From Octopus vulgaris (lineage: Eukaryota), in the NCBI GenBank assembly GCA_951406725.2, contig OX597818.1, forward strand, positions 44,578,001 through 44,642,000: a stretch of DNA of 64,000 nucleotides. Reading direction: 5' to 3'. Of the stretch, positions 4,757-62,485 are shown one piece after another (positions within the stretch are counted from its first letter, which is position 1; every line of letters begins with the position of its first letter). The notes under the pieces are model-generated. The model saw only the letters and a list, made by a program, of their open reading frames with translations, had not been told where the DNA came from and ran no database searches. A program made the translations under genes and the position numbers.

Positions 4757-4887
4757 TATATATATATATATGTCATACCTCCCTGCTTCCATTTCCTGAG
4801 CGCCTATTAATAATAATACTGTAATTGTTCCCTTGTTGTTGTTTTTTTGTTTCCCGTTTGGATTAAAATTATATATATATATATATA

Positions 4888-5338
4888 TATAACAAATAAG
4901 AAAGTGGAGAGGATACAAAATCGACAGACATCAGCCGGTAAACATTCCAGTATGTCTTTTTATTCTATTTGATAATCTGTACCACATGTATTAGTGGTAC
5001 AGATTATCAAATAGAAAGAGTCGGTAATTGCAAAAACAAGGGTGTGGAAACATATAATCATACAGGAACAGGTGATAAATTGAGTAAATGAGCAAATGAG
5101 TAAAAGGGTAAATGAACAGATTGTCAGTAAAACCGAATGGACTCATTTGCTCATTTACTCAATTAATCACCTGTTCCTATATGATTATATGCTTCCACAC
5201 CCTTGTTTTTGCAATTACAAACTCTTTCAATTTGATAATCTGTACCACTAGTACATTGGAAGAAATAGTCATACTGGAATGTTTACCAGCTGATGCCTGT
5301 TGATTCTGTATCCTCTCCGCTTTCTTATTTGCCATATA
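4888..5338. repeat. Long inverted repeat (arms ~4888-5101 and ~5141-5338), TA-flanked
   Basis: AATAAGAAAGTGGAGAGGATAC versus GTATCCTCTCCGCTTTCTTATT; inner TGAGTAAATGAGCAAATGAGT versus ACTCATTTGCTCATTTACTCA. Confidence 0.9.
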
Positions 5339-5540
5339 AATCAATGGTAAACCACTTTTTACCCCTGTTCAAATATAACACTCAATTACAAGATTGCCAC
5401 GCAATAACTAGTACTTGAGTATGAATATTTGGGTACACTACAAGCAGTATATTAGACAAGTGTTATCCCTTAGTTGGTTTCTCAACCTCTAACTCACACA
5501 GAAATATATATATATATATTCCATTTATTTCTTTTCGTAG

Positions 5541-5599
5541 TCCCTACTGATGAGGGGAAAATCCGTTGGATTAATCCTGAAATTGATTCAGTATAGAGA
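5541..5599 (+). ncRNA. Type I hammerhead ribozyme fold (C3-G8 core)
   Basis: tcccta CTGATGA [gggga a aatcc gtt ggatt aa tcct] GAAA ttgattcag TA tagaga: stems I, II and III present, GUA site. Confidence 0.75.
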
Positions 5600-5801: not shown

Positions 5802-5900
5802 TATATAAATAAGGATAAGATTGTTAATTTAAAAATAAAATAACGATTTTATCAAGTGGTCAGCATGGAAAAAATAACCTTCAAATGTAATAATTATTAA

Positions 5901-6184
5901 AATTATAAATTAGGGTATCTACGAGATACCACCATGCTGAAAATAGTAGCCATGATCTGACTCTAAAAGCAGTCCTAAATGCAAAACCAGAAATCTAAAA
6001 GCATTCCTAAATGCAAAGCCAGAAATCCAGGATCTAGAATTATCCAGTAATTTTTTACTAGTTTCATCTTGTCTCTTTGTTTTCTCTCCGTGTTGATATG
6101 TGGACGATTAAGGCAGTTTTAGAGTCAGATCATGGCTGCTATTTTCAGCATGGTGGTATCTCGTAGATACCCTAATTTATAATT
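5901..6184. repeat. Inverted repeat, 68-bp arms (5901-5968 and 6117-6184)
   Basis: Arms are reverse complements with one mismatch; module lies between (TA)n tracts. Confidence 0.92.
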
Positions 6185-6929
6185 ATACATATACATTATA
6201 TATATATATCATCAGTGTATCATATATCTGAAAAAGAAGTGCACTGTAAAGCAGAGCAATAATGTATTTATATGTCTGGTCATAGAGTAACCAATTGTTT
6301 TACATCCATATGTATGTATATATGTATGTGTATATGTATTCATGTATGCATGTATCTGTGTAATAGGGATTCAATAGTACAATCTTAACAATGTCTCTTT
6401 AATCATTTAGAATCTACCAGTAAACATAAACATATAATGAATATAATTATTTAATGTGTAAATGTAAATAGCTTGTTATTATACATTAGTTATGTGTGTT
6501 ACTCGATTATTTGATGTAGTGGTGTAGCAGAATTAAATTGAAAGGAACAGAATTTGAAAACCAGAAAAAGAACAACCTGAAAGTTATATGATCGTGTTTA
6601 GTCAATAATTGCAAGAAACTTCAAAGCAAACAGAATGGATTTATTTAGCTGACACACTGTTTTACTTGCTAATTTGACACCACTTAATGAGATAGAATAG
6701 ATATTCCATAACACAAAGAAGTGAGTCAACCTCCTCAGGTAATAAGATTCTAGTCTGATGTTGGCATCCAACAGTTGACATCAGAGAAATCATAGGCCGG
6801 TAGTGTCTTTGAACAAGGAATAATAGAGAGGTGAGAGAAGAGATTAAGAACTAAAAATATATAAATATATATATAAATGGGCAAGAAAAATGGTAAGACA
6901 TAGAGCAAAAGAGAAGAAACAAGTGGGGC

Positions 6930-12705: not shown

Positions 12706-13210
12706 TATATGTATGTATATTTATACATTCTTATATGTTCTTTCTTCATATTTTTTTAAAGTGTCACTGGTCATAGCAGTAAGCATTTCAGATTGATTAA
12801 AAATCACTGAATAAAATGGTTAGAGGAACTGAAATGTGCCTTGTGAGGTCCATGCATCTTGCTACCCACACACAAACACACACCAGACCACAAACACACA
12901 CACACACACACAAACATGCATAAATACTTATACATCATCATCATCATAACTGTCATCATAATTTAATGTCCATGTTGGCATGGGTTAGATGGTTCGACAA
13001 GATCCAGTGGGTCCAAGGAGTGCATCATGTACCAATATATATCTACACACACACATATGTATACATAAATGCATACATACATGCACACACATATACATGA
13101 TATATATATATATATATATATATATGTAGGTCCCGGGTTGATTCGGGGTTAACCACAGTAAGTAAGGTACTCAATACATAGCAGAGTAAAATTAATTTAT
13201 TATATAGAAG

Positions 13211-13263
13211 GAGCTTCTACAGGACTAGTACTGTTTCATTCAAGAGAAATCTTCAGGAAGCTC
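13211..13263 (-). ncRNA. Type I hammerhead ribozyme (mirror copy)
   Basis: Exact reverse complement of 13265-13317. Confidence 0.8.
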
Positions 13264-13264
13264 A

Positions 13265-13317
13265 GAGCTTCCTGAAGATTTCTCTTGAATGAAACAGTAC
13301 TAGTCCTGTAGAAGCTC
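13265..13317 (+). ncRNA. Type I hammerhead ribozyme (C3-G8 core, GUA site)
   Basis: gagcttc CTGAAGA tttc tctt gaat GAAA cag tactagtc ctg TA gaagctc: perfect 7-bp stem I, 4-bp stem III, ACTAGT palindrome in loop III. Confidence 0.82.
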
Positions 13318-13327
13318 CTTCTATATA

Positions 13328-13378
<51 letters not shown>

Positions 13379-13736: not shown

Positions 13737-13759
13737 CATACATACATATATATATATAT

Positions 13760-13897
13760 ACTCCGTTGTGTCTGGGGAGATTCATTTTCTTTTTGTGCCT
13801 TATAATGTAACACACTCACCAGCAAAATTTCCACTTATTTTTGAACTTTTATTTTCCTAAAAAGTTTTGTTGCATCTTGCAACCTTTTCAATAGTCT
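13760..13897 (-). mobile_element. Family F module with U3-A8 hammerhead-like fold (13857-13894)
   Basis: Homologous to 57453-57680 and 62240-62438; minus strand reads cta TTGAAAA g gttgc aagat gcaac AAAA cttt..tag; TA-flanked. Confidence 0.7.
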
Positions 13898-13944
<47 letters not shown>

Positions 13945-14625
13945 CATATATGCATTAATTATTAATGACAGATCCAGTATTATTACCAAAAGGTGACCTT
14001 TATATCCAACTTAACATGGATGCCTCGTTAGAACAACCAAATACTCCATTATTAGCCTTGAGAGATCCTCTCACATAGGTACCTGGTGCATAAAAGCACA
14101 GAGATAGATCATAGCAGACACCCATGAGAAATGAATTTCGTCTGCTACAAGCCATGAGTGTGCTTCTATGCACCAAGTTCTCTCTGAGTCTCTGTCTGTC
14201 TCTCTCTTTCTCTCTCTCTCACACACACACACATTAGGCTGTATGTACATGAATTCATATACAGAGTGAAAGTGAACAATGCAAAAAGACACACAATAAC
14301 CCAAGTAGAATAAATGCCTAATGCATTAATTATAATTCAGCCTACAGCATTTGGTTACTTACAGTATATCATATCCTTAGGGTAATCATCATATGAGAGT
14401 ACAGCATCTGAACTGCTTAATACTCACAGTCAGTTGCATTTCTGATGCTGCATTTACATCAGACGAGTACCCTAAGGATATTTAAAAGATATGAAACTTC
14501 ATGTAATGAAATACTCTAAAGTGGAGTTGTAGCAAACTCATTAAATGTATACACATGCGTAAACACATATACACATAGATGCATTTATATATGTATGCAT
14601 GTATATATGTGTGTGTGTGTGTGTG

Positions 14626-18359: not shown

Positions 18360-18428
18360 TGCATGCACTTATCACGTTATATTTATAAACAATATACCTG
18401 AAACATTTTCTGTATATAAATGGACCTC

Positions 18429-18470
<42 letters not shown>

Positions 18471-18539
18471 GAGGTCCATTTATATACAGAAAATGTTTCA
18501 GGTATATTGTTTATAAATATAACGTGATAAGTGCATGCA
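18360..18539. repeat. Perfect 180-bp palindrome centred on (TA)n
   Basis: TGCATGCACTTATCACG..GGACCTCTTTT(TA)nAAAAGAGGTCC..CGTGATAAGTGCATGCA. Confidence 0.92.
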
Positions 18540-26629: not shown

Positions 26630-27101
26630 TTCTTTATGGATTAATATATCCAAGGATAATATGAAGTGAAGTGTAAAATGTATAATGCTTCTATTTTCTG
26701 AAATTCTTGTAAGAACAAAAATAGGGAAGGTAGCCGTATAATTGATTGCATCATTATTGACACATGTATGGGAAAAAGTCTTTCTATATACATTAGTTGA
26801 ACATGAACAATCTCGTATTTGAAATCCTGCCTAGAATACAAATATGAAACGGATGGTCATTAGCTGCTCGGTAATTTGGTCTACAGGTTTGAAGGTAAGG
26901 ATTTCAAACATTGTTTTAAATATTTCTGTGTGTCTTTACATAAAATAGTCAAGGTGCTGCTGTTCCCAATGAAAATTGTATCCAGTTCCAGTTGTCTCTG
27001 TCTGCAGAACCATCCAAACAATATTTACATCATGGCTAGATGCATTTTTTTAAAAGTGTGACATAATGATGGAAGTATTTGTAAAAAGAAAGAAAAATAA
27101 C

Positions 27102-27200
27102 TGAAAACACCGGTTCTCGTCCGATCACTGAAGTTAAGCAAAGTCGAGCCTAGTTAGTACTTAGATGGGTGACTGCTTGGGAAACCTAGGTGCTGTAAAC
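27102..27200 (+). rRNA. 5S rRNA: 5S rRNA-derived segment lacking the first ~19 nt (probable pseudogene or chimera head)
   Basis: TGAAAACACCGGTTCTCGTCCGATCACTGAAGTTAAGC (box A)..GTTAGTACTTAGATGGGTGAC (box C)..TGGGAAACCTAGGTGCTGTAAAC follows the metazoan 5S consensus. Confidence 0.9.
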
Positions 27201-28614: not shown

Positions 28615-29311
28615 TGATCAAATAATCACTTTTTATTTGCATTAGGATAGGATAATACAAATACAACAGAGTTGCTAAACGGAAAAGAGAGTTAAATTCA
28701 AACTACAAAAAACAGGTTGGTGTTTTGGAGCCAGATTTTGTAGAATTTTTCTCTTTAGGTCTCAGTTACCTACTTGAAAAGTAATTATGCAAGACCTGGC
28801 AGCATTAGACCTCTCAGGTGAGATGGCACAGGATTAATATGCATAGAAAAATATTCTATTACAACTCTGTGTTCAGTCTGAACTAAAACAGAAAGAGAAG
28901 CATGATGATTCCAACAAGGTATTGATGATGATGATGATGATGTTGATAATAGCAATAATGATGATGATGATGATTATGATGATGATAGAAATATTTATAA
29001 ACTTTTCTTATGCTACTAGATATATTCATACTTCTGGTTGAATATTAAATTTCGAAGATGTACTTTTAATAGTAATTTCTCACATTTTCCTGTCACATAT
29101 CTTAAAATCATTTCAGGGAACAGCAAATTAAAAAAGACAGCAGTATATTACTGGTATTGTTTTATCAATCTGGAAGAATAACAGCAGGTAGGCAAGGTCA
29201 ACTACAGCAGAATTTGAGCTTGTACCATAAAGGGACAATATGACATTTCTGAAAACAGTTTCACAATTTTGTCCTTTTTTTTTAGAACCCAATATTATTT
29301 ATCCGGATGCT

Positions 29312-33437: not shown

Positions 33438-34253
33438 TCTTCATAGGCAAGTATTACCAGGGTGTGCTTTCAAGTTCTTCAGAAATAAGAAATTCCATAT
33501 TTGGAATACGAGTAAGGGTAGGTGACAGGAAGTGCATCCAAGCATAAGAATCTAACTTCAATTTACTTCTGTTTGAACCATGCTCTTATGGAAAACAAAA
33601 TGAAATGAACATCAGGGACAACAGTTCCATGATCTTTGTTATTTCAAGGATCAGAAAATGAGCATATCGGTACCTTTAACAACATTTGGTGGAAACTTCA
33701 CTCTTTATTTCACCAACAATTGTAGTAGTAACAGAAATTGTGACTCTCACTAGCATGTCTTACAAATATCTAAAATAACTTATATGCTTTCTTTTACACA
33801 AGTCATACTGAAATAACAGACAAATCTTCTTCAAATCCTACCCTACCATTTAAATTAAGAAACTGACTGGTACTCTCTTTTACTTGTTTCAGCCATCCGG
33901 CTGAGGCCATCTAGTTCTTAAAGTCAAGATGGTCATGGATGGAATGCTTTTGATTATAGGTCTTTTCAGTCAGAGATGAACTAGTGCTAAACATCATCAC
34001 CATCACTACTTTTCATAACAATTTCATTCCCTAAAATAGAGCCTATAGTTCACTACAGCAGTTTCCATACAAAAAGAATGTGTTACAAAAAACATTTCAT
34101 ACCTCATTTAAATCATGTTACTTATTTATTGACCAAGCTGGTTCATTCAAGAACAATCCGACTGAAACTATCTTTATTAAAGTATTGAAATTTAAATTAA
34201 AATCAACTGAAATATTATTATATGAAAAATAATATAAATTTTTAAAAATTTAA

Positions 34254-34304
34254 TTTGTCAAAATATTTTCGTTGCTTTGAGACCGCAACCTGTTCACTGA
34301 CAAA
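34254..34304 (-). ncRNA. Hammerhead fold with compensatory G3-C8 core
   Basis: Minus strand reads tttgtca GTGAACA g gttgc ggtctcaaa gcaac GAAA atat TT tgacaaa; inverted, decayed copy at 34323-34373. Confidence 0.65.
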
Positions 34305-35204
34305 ACTTTGTGCTACACAAAGTTTGTCAGTGAACAGGTTGCGGTCTCAAAGCGTCAAAAATATTTTGACAAATTAAATTTAAATGTTGAAGTGAATCTA
34401 ACTGTTTTTGTGTGTCTCTTAAATGGCTTATAAACACCTTCCACGTTGCAATTGTTTTCGTTCCAGCACACGATCTCAGATCAAGTCACTCGCTATGCAA
34501 GTACATCTTCGTAATATAAGATTTCAAAAGTTAAAAATCATCATTTACTAAATTATTTAACTAAATCTCTCATAATATTTTTATTATTTTGTAGCTTGAA
34601 TTAAAGTGAAACACAAAGTAAGAGGTTATCTTTCCTTAAAATGCAGCCACAAAAGAATTAAGCAGAAGGGAGTATATTTCATTAAAGAAGTGATAACACC
34701 ACCCCCCATCAAAAAAAAAAAAAAAAAGATGAGTGAAAGAAAGGAAAAGAAGATAAAAAATGATAAAAGAAGGCAAGGAAGGAGAAAAAAAAAGAAAATG
34801 ATAAAAAAGAAATGACAAAATGAATGAACAGAAAAAGAGAGTTTAAGAAAGTAGAGTATAACTGCTACAGTGAAGAAATGAGTGGATGAGTTAGGATATT
34901 AATGAATGAATAGAGGGAAACTTAATTGATTTCAAATGTTATTATAAAAATGAGTGGTTGAAAAGTTTCTTTCAGGGAGTGAATACATGAACAGGTGATT
35001 CTACATAAGTTATTACACATAATCTCATACATAATAGAGGAAGTTACTTTAATCAATAGTTCAAACAACAGTTCAACGTTGTAATTGAACTGAGAATATC
35101 TATAGGAAATATCTAATCTTAACCAATGAAATAACTCTCAAATAGGTTTTTCCTACTCAAATCCACTCTCATTCGAAAATATTAATTACAAAGAAAATTG
35201 GAAT

Positions 35205-36361: not shown

Positions 36362-37017
36362 TCTTTTACTTGTTTCAAGTCATTTGACTGTGGCCATGCT
36401 GGAGCACCGCATTTAGACGAGCAAATCGCACCCCCCAGGACTTATTCTTTGTAAGCCTAATACTTGTTCTATCGGTCTCTTTTGTTGAACTGCTAAGTTA
36501 CGGGGATGTAAACACACTAGCATCGGTTGTCAAGCAATGTTGGGGGTACAAACACAGACACAGAAACATATATACACACACAAACACACACACACACACA
36601 CACTCACACACACACACATATATATGTATATGTATGTATGTATGTATATATATATAAAATTAAATAAGGGTAGAAATTGATATTAATCAATTAAAACCGG
36701 TTGTTTCGCATATTTTAAAAAATCCAAAGATTAAAAATTGTTTTACATACAAAATTTAGAGGACTGACCACTAAAAGTGGACGTCTATGTTTAGCATATT
36801 GGCTGTCCACTTTTAGTGGTCAGTCCTCTAAATTTTGTATATATATACATATATGATGGACTTCTTTCAGTTTCCGTCTACCAAATCCACTCACAAGGCT
36901 TTGGTCGGTCCAAGGCTATAGTAGAAGACACTTGCTCAAGATGCCATGCAGTGGAACTGAACCCGGAACCATGTGGTTGGTAAGCAAGCTACTTGCCACA
37001 CAGCCACTCCTATGCCT
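36362..37017 (-). mobile_element. SINE family A carrying an inserted inverted-repeat module (~36660-36845)
   Basis: Both SINE halves intact; 36-bp IR arms at 36747-36782 and 36805-36840. Confidence 0.88.
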
Positions 37018-46874: not shown

Positions 46875-47157
46875 GTTAAAGAGTATATTGTTTTAAACAA
46901 TTACTCAAAAGTGATTCTGACACATATATCTAGTTTTAAAAGGTAAGCTCTTCATATATTCCCCCACCTGATGCCAGTTCATCACAAGATTATTCATTTC
47001 TGCGAGCTGAGTGGGCTGGAACAAGGTTAAATGAAATGTTTTGTTCAAGAATACAACACATCCAAATCACAATCTTACGATCATGAGTCGAACACCCTAA
47101 CCACTAAGCCATGTGCCACCACAGAAAGAGACAAGAGTCTCTTTCTGTGGTGGCACA

Positions 47158-47580
47158 AGGCGGCGAGCTGGCAGAAAAGTTAGCATGCCGGGCGAAATGC
47201 TTAGCGGTATTTCGTCTGCCACTACGTTCTGAGTTCAAATTCTGCCGAGGTCAACTTTGCCTTTCATCCTTTCGGGGTCGATAAATTAAGTACCAGTTAC
47301 GCACTGGGTTTGATGTAATCGACTTAATCCATTTGTCTGTCCTTGTTTGTCCTTTCTGTGTTTAGCCCCTTGTGGGTAGTAAAGAAATAGGTATTTCGTC
47401 TGCTGCTATGTTCTGAGTTCAAATTCCACCGAGGTCAACTTTGCCTTTCATCCTTTCGGGGTTGATTAAATAAGTACCAGTTATGCACTGAGGTTGATGT
47501 AATCGACTTAATCCATTTGTCTGTCCTTGTTTGTCCCCTTTGTGTGTAGCCCCTTGTGGGCAGTAAAGAAATAAGAAATA
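47158..47580 (+). mobile_element. SINE family B head-to-tail dimer
   Basis: Second unit restarts at GGTATTTCGTCTGC directly after AAAGAAATA. Confidence 0.9.
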
Positions 47581-49887: not shown

Positions 49888-50495
49888 GTGGAAGCACATG
49901 ACCAAGAGGTTAGGATTTTGGCCTCATGATCATAAAATTGTGGCTTCAATTCCTGGACTGGGTAAAAAGAGTAAAGAGGTAAAGACCCCTTCAGTCACAA
50001 ATGACCATGGGATTGCACCTAGAAAGTTCCCCTCTTAGATACATGCCTGGGCAAGGTTGTTTTGTGGAAGACCAGCAGTTGCCCATACACATCAACCTTT
50101 CCTCTCCACACCACCGATGTTATCAAAAGGAAAGGCAAAGGCTGACACAGCTTGGCACCAATGATGTCGCAACTCATTTCAACAGCTGAGTGAAACGGAG
50201 CAACATGAAATAAAGTGTCTTGCTCAAGAACACAACACAGAATCCAGCCTGGGAATCGAACTCACAACCTCATGATCATAAGCTTGATGCTCTAATCACT
50301 GAGCCATGTGCTTTCATCTGGACAAGGCAACACACTGTGTTCTTGAGCAAAACACTTTATTTCATGTTGCTCCAGTTCACTCAGCTGGCAAAAATGAGTA
50401 ACACTGCAATGGACCAGCATCCCATCCAGGGGATAAATACATGCACCACAAAAACCAGAAAACTGGACCTGAGAGTCTATATGACTGGGGAAGGG
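49888..50495. mobile_element. Nested SINEs: minus-strand tRNA/CORE-type SINE (~49963-50315) inside a plus-strand D-related SINE
   Basis: Outer halves join colinearly with 37533-37780; the inner copy has a GAGTTCGATTCC B box on the minus strand. Confidence 0.7.
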
Positions 50496-57230: not shown

Positions 57231-57446
57231 TTATTGCTCACAAAGGGCTAAACACAGAGGGGACAAACAAGGGGATTAAGTCGATTGCATTGACCCCAGT
57301 GCATAACTGGTACTTATTTTATTGACCTCGAAAGGATGAAAGGTAAAGTCGACCTCAGCGAAATTTGAACTCAGATCGTAACAACAGATGAAATACCGCT
57401 AAGAATTTCACTTGGCATGTTAATGTTTCTGCCAGCTCACTGCCTT
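57227..57446 (-). mobile_element. SINE family B
   Basis: Colinear copy. Confidence 0.88.
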
Positions 57447-57452
57447 ATATAT

Positions 57453-57680
57453 ATATTCTGTTGTGTCTGGGGAGAGTCATTTTCTTTTTGTGCCTTATTA
57501 TTTAACACACTCACAGGTAAAATTTCCACTTTTTTCTTATTTTTATTGTCCTAAAATTTTCATTGCGTCTTGCAACCTTAAGGCACAAAAAGAAAATGAC
57601 TCTCCCCAGACACAACAGAATATGCTTCAACACATGAACTCATATAAAGAATCTTGCAAACCAAATCCAAAAACGAAATA
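57453..57680. mobile_element. Family F module with internal inversion (45-bp IR at 57453-57497 and 57579-57623)
   Basis: Two orientations of the 62240-62438 sequence, joined inside the hammerhead fold. Confidence 0.85.
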
Positions 57681-58074
57681 TATATATATATTCTTATCAG
57701 ATTTGTGAAGCTGATGAAGTTGATGTTTAAATTCTAGGTTGATGTTTATAGAGAAAAGGTAGGCCAGGAAGCAGTTTCAAGAGTTTGCTGTTTAAGGAGA
57801 AAGGATTTCTCTTAAAACATATATTTTCCAAAAGATCAATAACTATAAAGGCTTTTTTCTTTTTAGTAATAATAAAGGTTTCTCACAGATGTGTTTTGTT
57901 ATAACGACAATCATTAATTTATTGATCACGGAAAACTGAAAAATCATCACAGCTGATCTTGCAAGCATTTCAGCACATAAGAGATACAAAAATTTTTATG
58001 ATCTTCACCTTGGGGAATACCTAATAATGGGTATCTTATATAAGCATGAACTATGAGGCTTTTAGATGAAGGAT

Positions 58075-62087: not shown

Positions 62088-62239
62088 ATATATTACTGAT
62101 TCATTGAACATGGTGCTTTATTTTTAACGAAACACCTGTGATAAACAAGGACAGATACACTGCAAAAAGAGCAAAATAGTTCAGAAGGAAGAGGAAAAAC
62201 TATAATAGCACCAGGATGGTCTCCCATTGCTAGGAAAAA

Positions 62240-62437
62240 ACACACTCACTATTGAAAAGGTTGCAAGACACATGGAAAACTTTAGGAAAATAAAAATAAG
62301 AAATAAGTGGAAAATTTACCGGTGAGTGTGTTAAATTATAAGGCACAAAAAGAAAATGACTCTCCCCAGACACAACAGAATATGCTTCAACACATGAACT
62401 CATATAAAGAATCTTGCAAACCAAATCCCAAAATGAA

Positions 62438-62438
<1 letters not shown>
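62240..62438 (+). mobile_element. Family F module with U3-A8 hammerhead-like fold (62249-62285)
   Basis: cta TTGAAAA ggttgcaagacacatg GAAA ac TT tag. Confidence 0.7.

Positions 62439-62485
<47 letters not shown>

Follow-up and report, generated by a model that had tools for sequence, protein, structure and literature searches.

A candidate minimal hammerhead with a G3-C8 core at the 3' repeat end of a Penelope-like element of octopus

The repeat at the locus and the protein that it begins

The window (i.e., the whole 64-kb stretch of DNA analysed here) is animal DNA, rich in A and T, that contains microsatellites and interspersed repeats. The feature under study lies in a fold-back at 34246-34381 (92% over 137 columns), formed by one copy of a short repeat and an inverted partial duplicate of its beginning. 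The parts discussed below are the following.

34315..34515, plus strand: main copy of the 3' repeat end (pLTR) of a high-copy Penelope-like element (PLE), with hammerhead, spacer, ORF start and tail (contig depth, loose ends, alignment)
34423..34515, plus strand: first 31 codons of the PLE ORF, from the ATG (30/31 identical to the N-terminus of P0001, XP_029654200.2)
34453..34515, plus strand: optional tail of about 60 nt (contig ends; the same two ends in family F, below)
34246..34311, minus strand: inverted partial duplicate of the element's 5' 66 nt, ending 8 nt past helix I (inverted-repeat search, alignment)
34254..34304, minus strand: minimal type I hammerhead motif with a G3-C8 core, the more intact copy, in the inverted arm (descriptor scan, folding)
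34323..34373, plus strand: the same motif in the main copy, decayed (sequence; in the contig alignment the family majority is intact at both damaged places)

The repeat belongs to a large family. Contigs of four public runs (X1, X3, X7 and X9) from three organisms, with X1 and X3 from the same one, X1 perhaps the source sample of the window and X3 presumably an RNA run, were aligned to 33950-34700 at 80% likeness, giving 16397, 778, 13869 and 9480 aligned contigs, respectively, and nearly all of their depth, which is uneven along the element, falls between about 34246 and 34515. The repeat unit is the plus strand from about 34315 to 34515; among the 24 of 1018 rows listed, many family members start about 16 nt before helix I, with mixed sequence beyond, and the 3' ends fall near 34452-34458 or near 34508-34518. 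Over helix II the summed depth is 13,000-40,000 times that of the unique flank (X1, X7 and X9), depending on whether the arms are added, which, as a summed depth and not a copy number, puts the family at the order of 10^4 copies. In the 64-kb window itself no second copy of the element was found beyond a 21-nt end fragment at 29045-29065 (minus strand), which matches the tail end at 19 of 21 positions and may be an insertion truncated almost entirely. What could be an 8-bp target duplication (34230-34237 / 34512-34519) was seen by eye and, being AT-rich, left uncounted, and 33950-34001 is the edge of a second, lower-copy repeat, with a depth 10 to 20 times that of the unique flank in three runs.

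Judged by its sequence, the repeat is the 3' repeat end of a PLE, because its ORF start is nearly identical to that of an Octopus protein continuing into a Penelope-like RT; the annotation had not recognised this context or the extent of the unit to 34515. That protein, XP_029654200.2, is from Octopus sinensis, and the 31-codon peptide also matches the N-terminus of A0A0L8I3W9 (O. bimaculoides); both proteins extend past the end of the element and overlap the O. vulgaris proteins CAI9726376.1 and CAI9741096.1, the second of which, used as a query, retrieved 66 proteins among the 8000 candidates scored. In these relatives the order is RT, then a CX4CxxC linker, then GIY-YIG with CCHH. Pfam matches to them are weak (RVT_1 in 3/12, GIY-YIG in 1/12, all below the curated cut-offs), whilst DUF8422 and RVT_1 are found in Atlas neighbours at 0.94-0.97, and HTH_animal and GIY-YIG also appear among the structure neighbours. 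The link from the window to RT and GIY-YIG thus runs through a chain of proteins (window peptide to P0001/P0002, to P0005, to the RT relatives) and not through a full-length DNA copy. The motif pattern by itself reads as that of a Neptune/Nematis-type EN+ PLE.

Near the locus, a Pfam scan of 150 of the 259 candidate frames of the window detected neither RT nor endonuclease, its one such match being an RT (RVT_1) fragment at 528-923; an Atlas search with P0002 returned nothing useful (0.75), and P0004 was set aside as a chance match. In the P0001 gene model, roughly 230 residues of PLE N-terminus are followed by a methyltransferase fragment, through mis-prediction or exon capture. Four of the seven listed family variants in the 31-codon frame (34431-34485) are silent third-position changes, which fits coding constraint among subfamilies. 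PLE relatives were not found in viral contigs, and among 90 candidates from prokaryote genomes a single locus emerged, L045:1-2683 (JAAELB010000961.1), in a Desulfobulbaceae MAG, which carries a PLE-type RT with C-terminal GIY-YIG and is probably host contamination. About 230 nt past its stop (about 2535-2580) a hammerhead-like stretch with C3-G8, A5 and U15.1-A16.1 can be made out by eye; the descriptor misses it, and its fold z is -0.2.

The window contains several other structures. The 139-bp fold-back at 13195-13333 is 99% perfect, and each of its arms holds a type I hammerhead-like motif of the canonical C3-G8 kind (cores at 13272, plus, and 13256, minus; helix I 7 bp, helix III 4 bp), both reading outward from the centre, in a layout like that of the Hydra-clade PLE motifs in PMC8557442 File S2; its fold z is only -0.8. 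A weaker match with a canonical CUGAUGA core lies beside a (TA)n run at 5544-5595 and scores within the null range. Further fold-backs occur at 4883-5341, 5898-6187, 14371-14481, 18360-18539 (100% perfect, around a (TA)n centre), 36744-36843, 47108-47161 and 50183-50387, and some may be PLE ends. A 5S rRNA-like copy at 27085-27197 scores above the Rfam gathering score and has a broken terminal helix.

The hammerhead-like motif and its state in the family

The initial annotation had proposed a hammerhead layout on the minus strand at 34254-34304, and both sequence reading and a descriptor scan bear it out position by position. Helix I (34304-34298 / 34260-34254) has seven Watson-Crick pairs, and the core GUGAACA follows at 34297-34291, with G3 at 34297 and C8 at 34292. 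A single extra G (34290) leads to helix II (34289-34285 / 34275-34271; five pairs, 9-nt loop), which is followed by GAAA at 34270-34267. U16.1 (34262) and U17 (34261) make the triplet UUU, so that the cut is predicted between 34261 and 34260. As had also been claimed, the core departs from CUGANGA by C3G plus G8C, i.e., positions 3 and 8 read G and C in place of C and G, and the remaining core positions are canonical: U4, G5, A6 and A9, G12, A13 and A14, A15.1-U16.1 and H17 are all present in this left arm. A Watson-Crick pair between positions 3 and 8 can form here as G-C and, in the homologous family F, as U-A. The motif shares with minimal hammerheads (min-HHRs) the extra nucleotide 9/10.1, G10.1-C11.1 and a palindromic 15.1-16.1. 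The palindromic stem III of the annotation is present, with a usable part of six nucleotides (A15.1 through U16.1), since the 8-nt palindrome would require A14 and U17 to pair.

Folded as a 51-mer, the motif has helices I and II as its MFE structure (z -1.9; 8/200 shuffles as good), with pair probabilities of 0.6-1.0 in both helices when the arm is folded alone. Self-pairing of the palindrome gives 6 bp at a calculated -0.2 kcal/mol only, so an intermolecular helix III would be barely stable. The Rfam scan of the region matched no hammerhead model; its miRNA-precursor matches merely reflect the hairpin and score below the gathering thresholds. Since the literal C3/G8 consensus fails and cleavage is predicted from sequence, we file this as a variant motif and not as a proven ribozyme, though its layout looks like that of a working PLE minimal hammerhead.

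The copy on the plus strand is more decayed. Its core (34330-34336) is the same, as the annotation had noted together with the change of GAAA to AAAA (G12 to A, at 34357); in addition, a helix II pair is broken at 34355. The two arms differ by three substitutions and one internal indel in 67 columns and have in common letters that are rare in the family (the helix II U is found in 1-5% of the depth on the right arm and 7-15% on the left), which points to one template for both; one arm may have been copied from the other, or both from a single template. Unlike typical inverted PLE copies, the inverted arm has no 3' end of the element, which either snap-back copying at the 5' junction or a subsequent deletion could explain. 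Read-through at this locus would bury both motifs, since a transcript spanning the two arms is predicted to fold into a long hairpin (about -92 to -95 kcal/mol) that leaves helices I and II a probability of 0.0. Given this burial and the loss of G12 from the sense-strand main copy, the copy at the locus is, on the folding model, very likely an inert, dead relic.

The contig data on the state of the family are unphased summed depths, in which changes were counted by kind at 5% of the depth or more; a C3-G8 core would require G>C, and U3-A8 would require G>T, at 34330 and 34292. Across the stretch, this level is reached by neither G>C nor C>G in X3 and X9 and not by G>C in X7, whilst in X1 one G>C place and two C>G places reach it, at positions outside the changes listed. 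G>T occurs in X1, X7 and X9 only at 34322, and in X3 at one place outside the changes listed. At 5% of the depth or more, therefore, neither C3-G8 nor U3-A8 is seen in X7 or X9, X3 rules out C3-G8 only and X1 rules out U3-A8 only, with the proviso that clipping near the element's 5' end could mask variants at position 3. In all, 36 changes lie outside those listed, and minor transitions to A3 or U8 may be among them. Unlisted G>A and C>T changes are likelier to come from the nine CpG sites of the copy, and none of the four core places (3 and 8 in both arms) sits in a CpG. These counts support G3-C8 as the family state in the four runs, with A3 or U8 possible as minor variants.

Where the window copy and the family differ, the family letters make the better hammerhead. 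G12 is present in 80-92% of the family depth, the helix II pair broken in the main copy is intact in 93-96%, and the third pair of helix II is C-G in 85-99%, as against U-A in the window copy, where it is the product of CpG decay (both changes are in CpG context). All these copies descend from few masters and are not independent; the flip therefore counts as one evolutionary event and not as thousands.

A homologous family, possible activity and competing explanations

The annotation had further tied the motif to a second repeat, family F, of which the window holds three copies.

13751..13897, minus strand: family F copy 1, with a U3-A8 core, without G12, with no tail, in (TA)n (repeat comparison)
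62235..62447, plus strand: family F copy 2, with a U3-A8 core and a broken helix II, tailed (repeat comparison, alignment)
57446..57690, both strands: family F copy 3, a tail-less minus copy head-to-head with an inverted tailed plus copy (repeat comparison)

The whole hammerhead is in no single F copy, the F motif being a composite of three damaged ones. Its core, given earlier as TTGAAAA, does read UUGAAAA in two of the three, whilst the minus part of copy 3 is truncated inside the core and keeps the 3' half of the motif intact. Copy 3 includes an inverted copy with its 3' end, in the head-to-head arrangement described as typical of PLE copies (PMC8557442; for this and the other papers cited, statements refer to the accessible portions of the source). 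The DNA of the element and that of F are collinear from core through tail (1/1000 shuffles as good), and so is the part downstream of the hammerhead taken alone (9/1000). Their peptides are identical at 12 of 27 residues, ungapped (shuffles as good: 0/1000 with copy 3, 22/1000 with copy 2), and the coding differences fall 11/7/18 on codon positions 1/2/3. Both tails stop at one and the same codon, the two alternative 3' ends recur in F, and the spacers are identical at 39 of 57 positions. Positions 3/8 read G-C in the element's family and U-A in F, the third pair of helix II is C-G and U-A, respectively, and helix I has changed along its whole length; pairing is kept in every case.

It is on the collinear downstream DNA and the common ORF start, and not on an identical helix II, that homology rests. 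The annotation had stressed a stem II common to both; its letters are indeed identical in the window copy, partly by coincidence, as the family majority has C-G at the third pair. Its broader idea, that related modules swapped G-C and U-A, holds up better, for F is homologous in DNA and peptide and has U3-A8 against the G3-C8 of the family. The sequences thus support F as a distant true homologue with U3-A8, and a 3-8 pair that covaries between families; a natural compensatory variant, as had been suggested, is borne out at that level.

We therefore consider it probable that the feature is a short pLTR insertion of an octopus EN-bearing PLE whose parent carried a minimal type I hammerhead with G3-C8. 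In tandem or multi-copy transcripts, two motifs would pair through the 6-nt palindrome to make helix III, G3-C8 would stand in for the C3-G8 tertiary pair, and cleavage of the RNA after UUU would be slow, probably aided by the protein of the element. PLE minimal hammerheads in general have no stable helix III and are thought to be dimeric via the palindrome, slow, and perhaps protein-aided (PMC4209133, PMC6765202). As to the core, C3G/G8C partly restores cleavage in the anole PAc PLE hammerhead (PMC11167929) and, in an exhaustive pairwise mutant scan, was alone in giving rescue within that region (PMC9901934), whereas G8C alone is reported as 10^5-fold slower (PMC8495972). With the dimer model, the partial rescue and the slow single mutant all weighed, we rate the chance that the family form cleaves measurably as slightly better than even.

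The explanation that survives best next to this accepts the PLE end and takes the hammerhead to be catalytically dead in the master copy, its fold being kept for another role (i.e., protein binding or translation control ahead of the ORF start) or simply drifting, with the pairing of G3 and C8 a matter of luck. Cleavage is dispensable for PLE insertion in vitro and the anole element has no RNA-seq reads ending at the cut site (PMC11167929), the flip requires two transversions through the intermediate with the 10^5-fold reported loss (PMC8495972), and the related element L045 seems, by eye, to depart further from the canonical core. Against this, both families hold a Watson-Crick 3-8 pair with different letters and keep the other core positions canonical, although so much of the spacer has changed and helix I, altered in sequence, is still paired; two random double changes would both pair in about 1 case in 9 (hand estimate). 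On balance, we think a dead master unlikely.

Far less credible is the idea that the nested palindromes of a MITE-like or fold-back repeat have produced a look-alike by chance. The window does have 13 local inverted repeats, the fold z is only -1.9, no Rfam hammerhead is matched, and a relaxed descriptor (one mismatch tolerated, long helix III allowed) gave 73 Watson-Crick matches scoring equally well or better in 1858 simulated windows, i.e., about 4 per 100. The strict descriptor, which accepts every letter at positions 3 and 8, finds a single match in both strands of the 64-kb window; under an order-4 Markov null, 1805 simulated windows contained 0 matches with helix I of at least 7 and helix II of at least 5, and 21 Watson-Crick 3-8 matches at the loosest setting. 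The single copy, taken alone, is a good lead rather than proof, and the case rests, for that reason, on the family data and the PLE context. There, chance fares badly: the motif lies a short way before a PLE ORF start, as PLE hammerheads do (a link that largely refutes the look-alike), the family letters improve the motif instead of degrading it, and a matching motif occupies the equivalent position in the homologous family F. Pattern matches outside the octopus data were, for their part, put down to chance, in metagenomes (20 of 20 without helix I of at least 2 bp plus a palindromic helix III) as in viruses (24 of 24 without the rest of the motif).

An assembly artefact as the source of the fold-back is the least probable explanation of all: no aligned contig crosses its centre and the window has two further fold-backs that are 99-100% perfect, but the arms here differ at the four internal places described above, contigs of three runs reach about 23-25 bases from the unique left flank into the left arm (below the 31-base bar, and a hint only), and the G3-C8 result is independent of the locus.

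Significance and comparison with known systems

Returning to the octopus PLE with a G3-C8 hammerhead, two homologous families that keep a Watson-Crick 3-8 pair with different letters, whilst the neighbouring DNA has diverged by about a third, argue for selection on catalytic geometry. That the lineage spread with a working G3-C8 hammerhead, its sister family using U3-A8, is a tentative proposition, to which we give slightly less than an even chance. If true, the 3-8 pair crossed a near-inactive intermediate and was then restored by selection (the G3-C8 flip takes two transversions, whereas C3-G8 can reach U3-A8 through a wobble), which would be direct evidence from evolution that PLEs depend on ribozyme cleavage in vivo. 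It would also mean tens of thousands of ribozyme copies invisible to CUGANGA searches, and flipped cores may be present in some PLE clades reported without hammerheads. The family escapes standard descriptors and Rfam, and hammerhead censuses are accordingly undercounts. The role of hammerheads in PLEs is described as unclear by Craig et al. (PMC8557442), for whom they may be passengers, and the two families are ready natural constructs for testing it. Mechanistically the swap is not shocking, since it is already known to work in part as a laboratory mutant.

Natural 3/8 covariation has been described by Perreault et al. 2011 (PMC3088659) too, but as U3-A8, which is also reported in PMC4209133. 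Natural G3-C8 was not found in the searchable full texts, a scope outside which most subscription papers and figures fall; only laboratory mutants were met there, as also in PMC3884650, and the parts covered of PMC6155905, PMC13282606, PMC11014351 and bioRxiv 10.64898/2026.07.22.740005 hold nothing on it. The engineered C3G/G8C changes (PMC11167929, PMC9901934, Martick & Scott 2006) are the same swap with partial rescue; unlike them, the swap here is the natural state of a family whose copies number on the order of 10^4. In Fig. S3 of Cervera & de la Pena 2014 (PMC4209133), 53 of the 56 rows are C3-G8, two U3-A8, one U3-G8 and none G3-C8, and the 34 hammerhead rows of PMC8557442 File S2 (Chlamys and Hydra clades) are all C3-G8, with none G3-C8.

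In other respects the motif agrees well with the min-HHRs of PMC4209133: both are type I, with the extra nucleotide 9/10.1, G10.1-C11.1, a short palindromic helix III, U17 and a position in the pLTR, and PLE hammerheads there also occur as many solo copies and opposite-strand pairs, and natural U3-A8, the state of family F, is known among them. In the present motif G is the extra nucleotide, against a published consensus of H (G in 1 of the 56 rows), and helix I, at 7 bp, is longer than usual for a min-HHR. Non-LTR retrozymes are recognised by tandem units, each with a type I hammerhead, in place of which the window has one copy and an inverted arm.

The element itself resembles the Neptune/Nematis-type EN+ PLEs of Craig et al. 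2021 (PMC8557442), with their C-terminal GIY-YIG, CX4CxxC linker and CCHH, inverted 5' copy, optional tail and AT-rich or (TA)n targets. Hydra-1_Obim from that work is a different element, and the present one differs in a tail of about 60 nt (30-40 nt in print) and in an inverted arm without the 3' end. The pLTR of the anole PAc element is built likewise: it has a hammerhead and an ORF start, and its tail is bounded by two RT start sites (PMC11167929).
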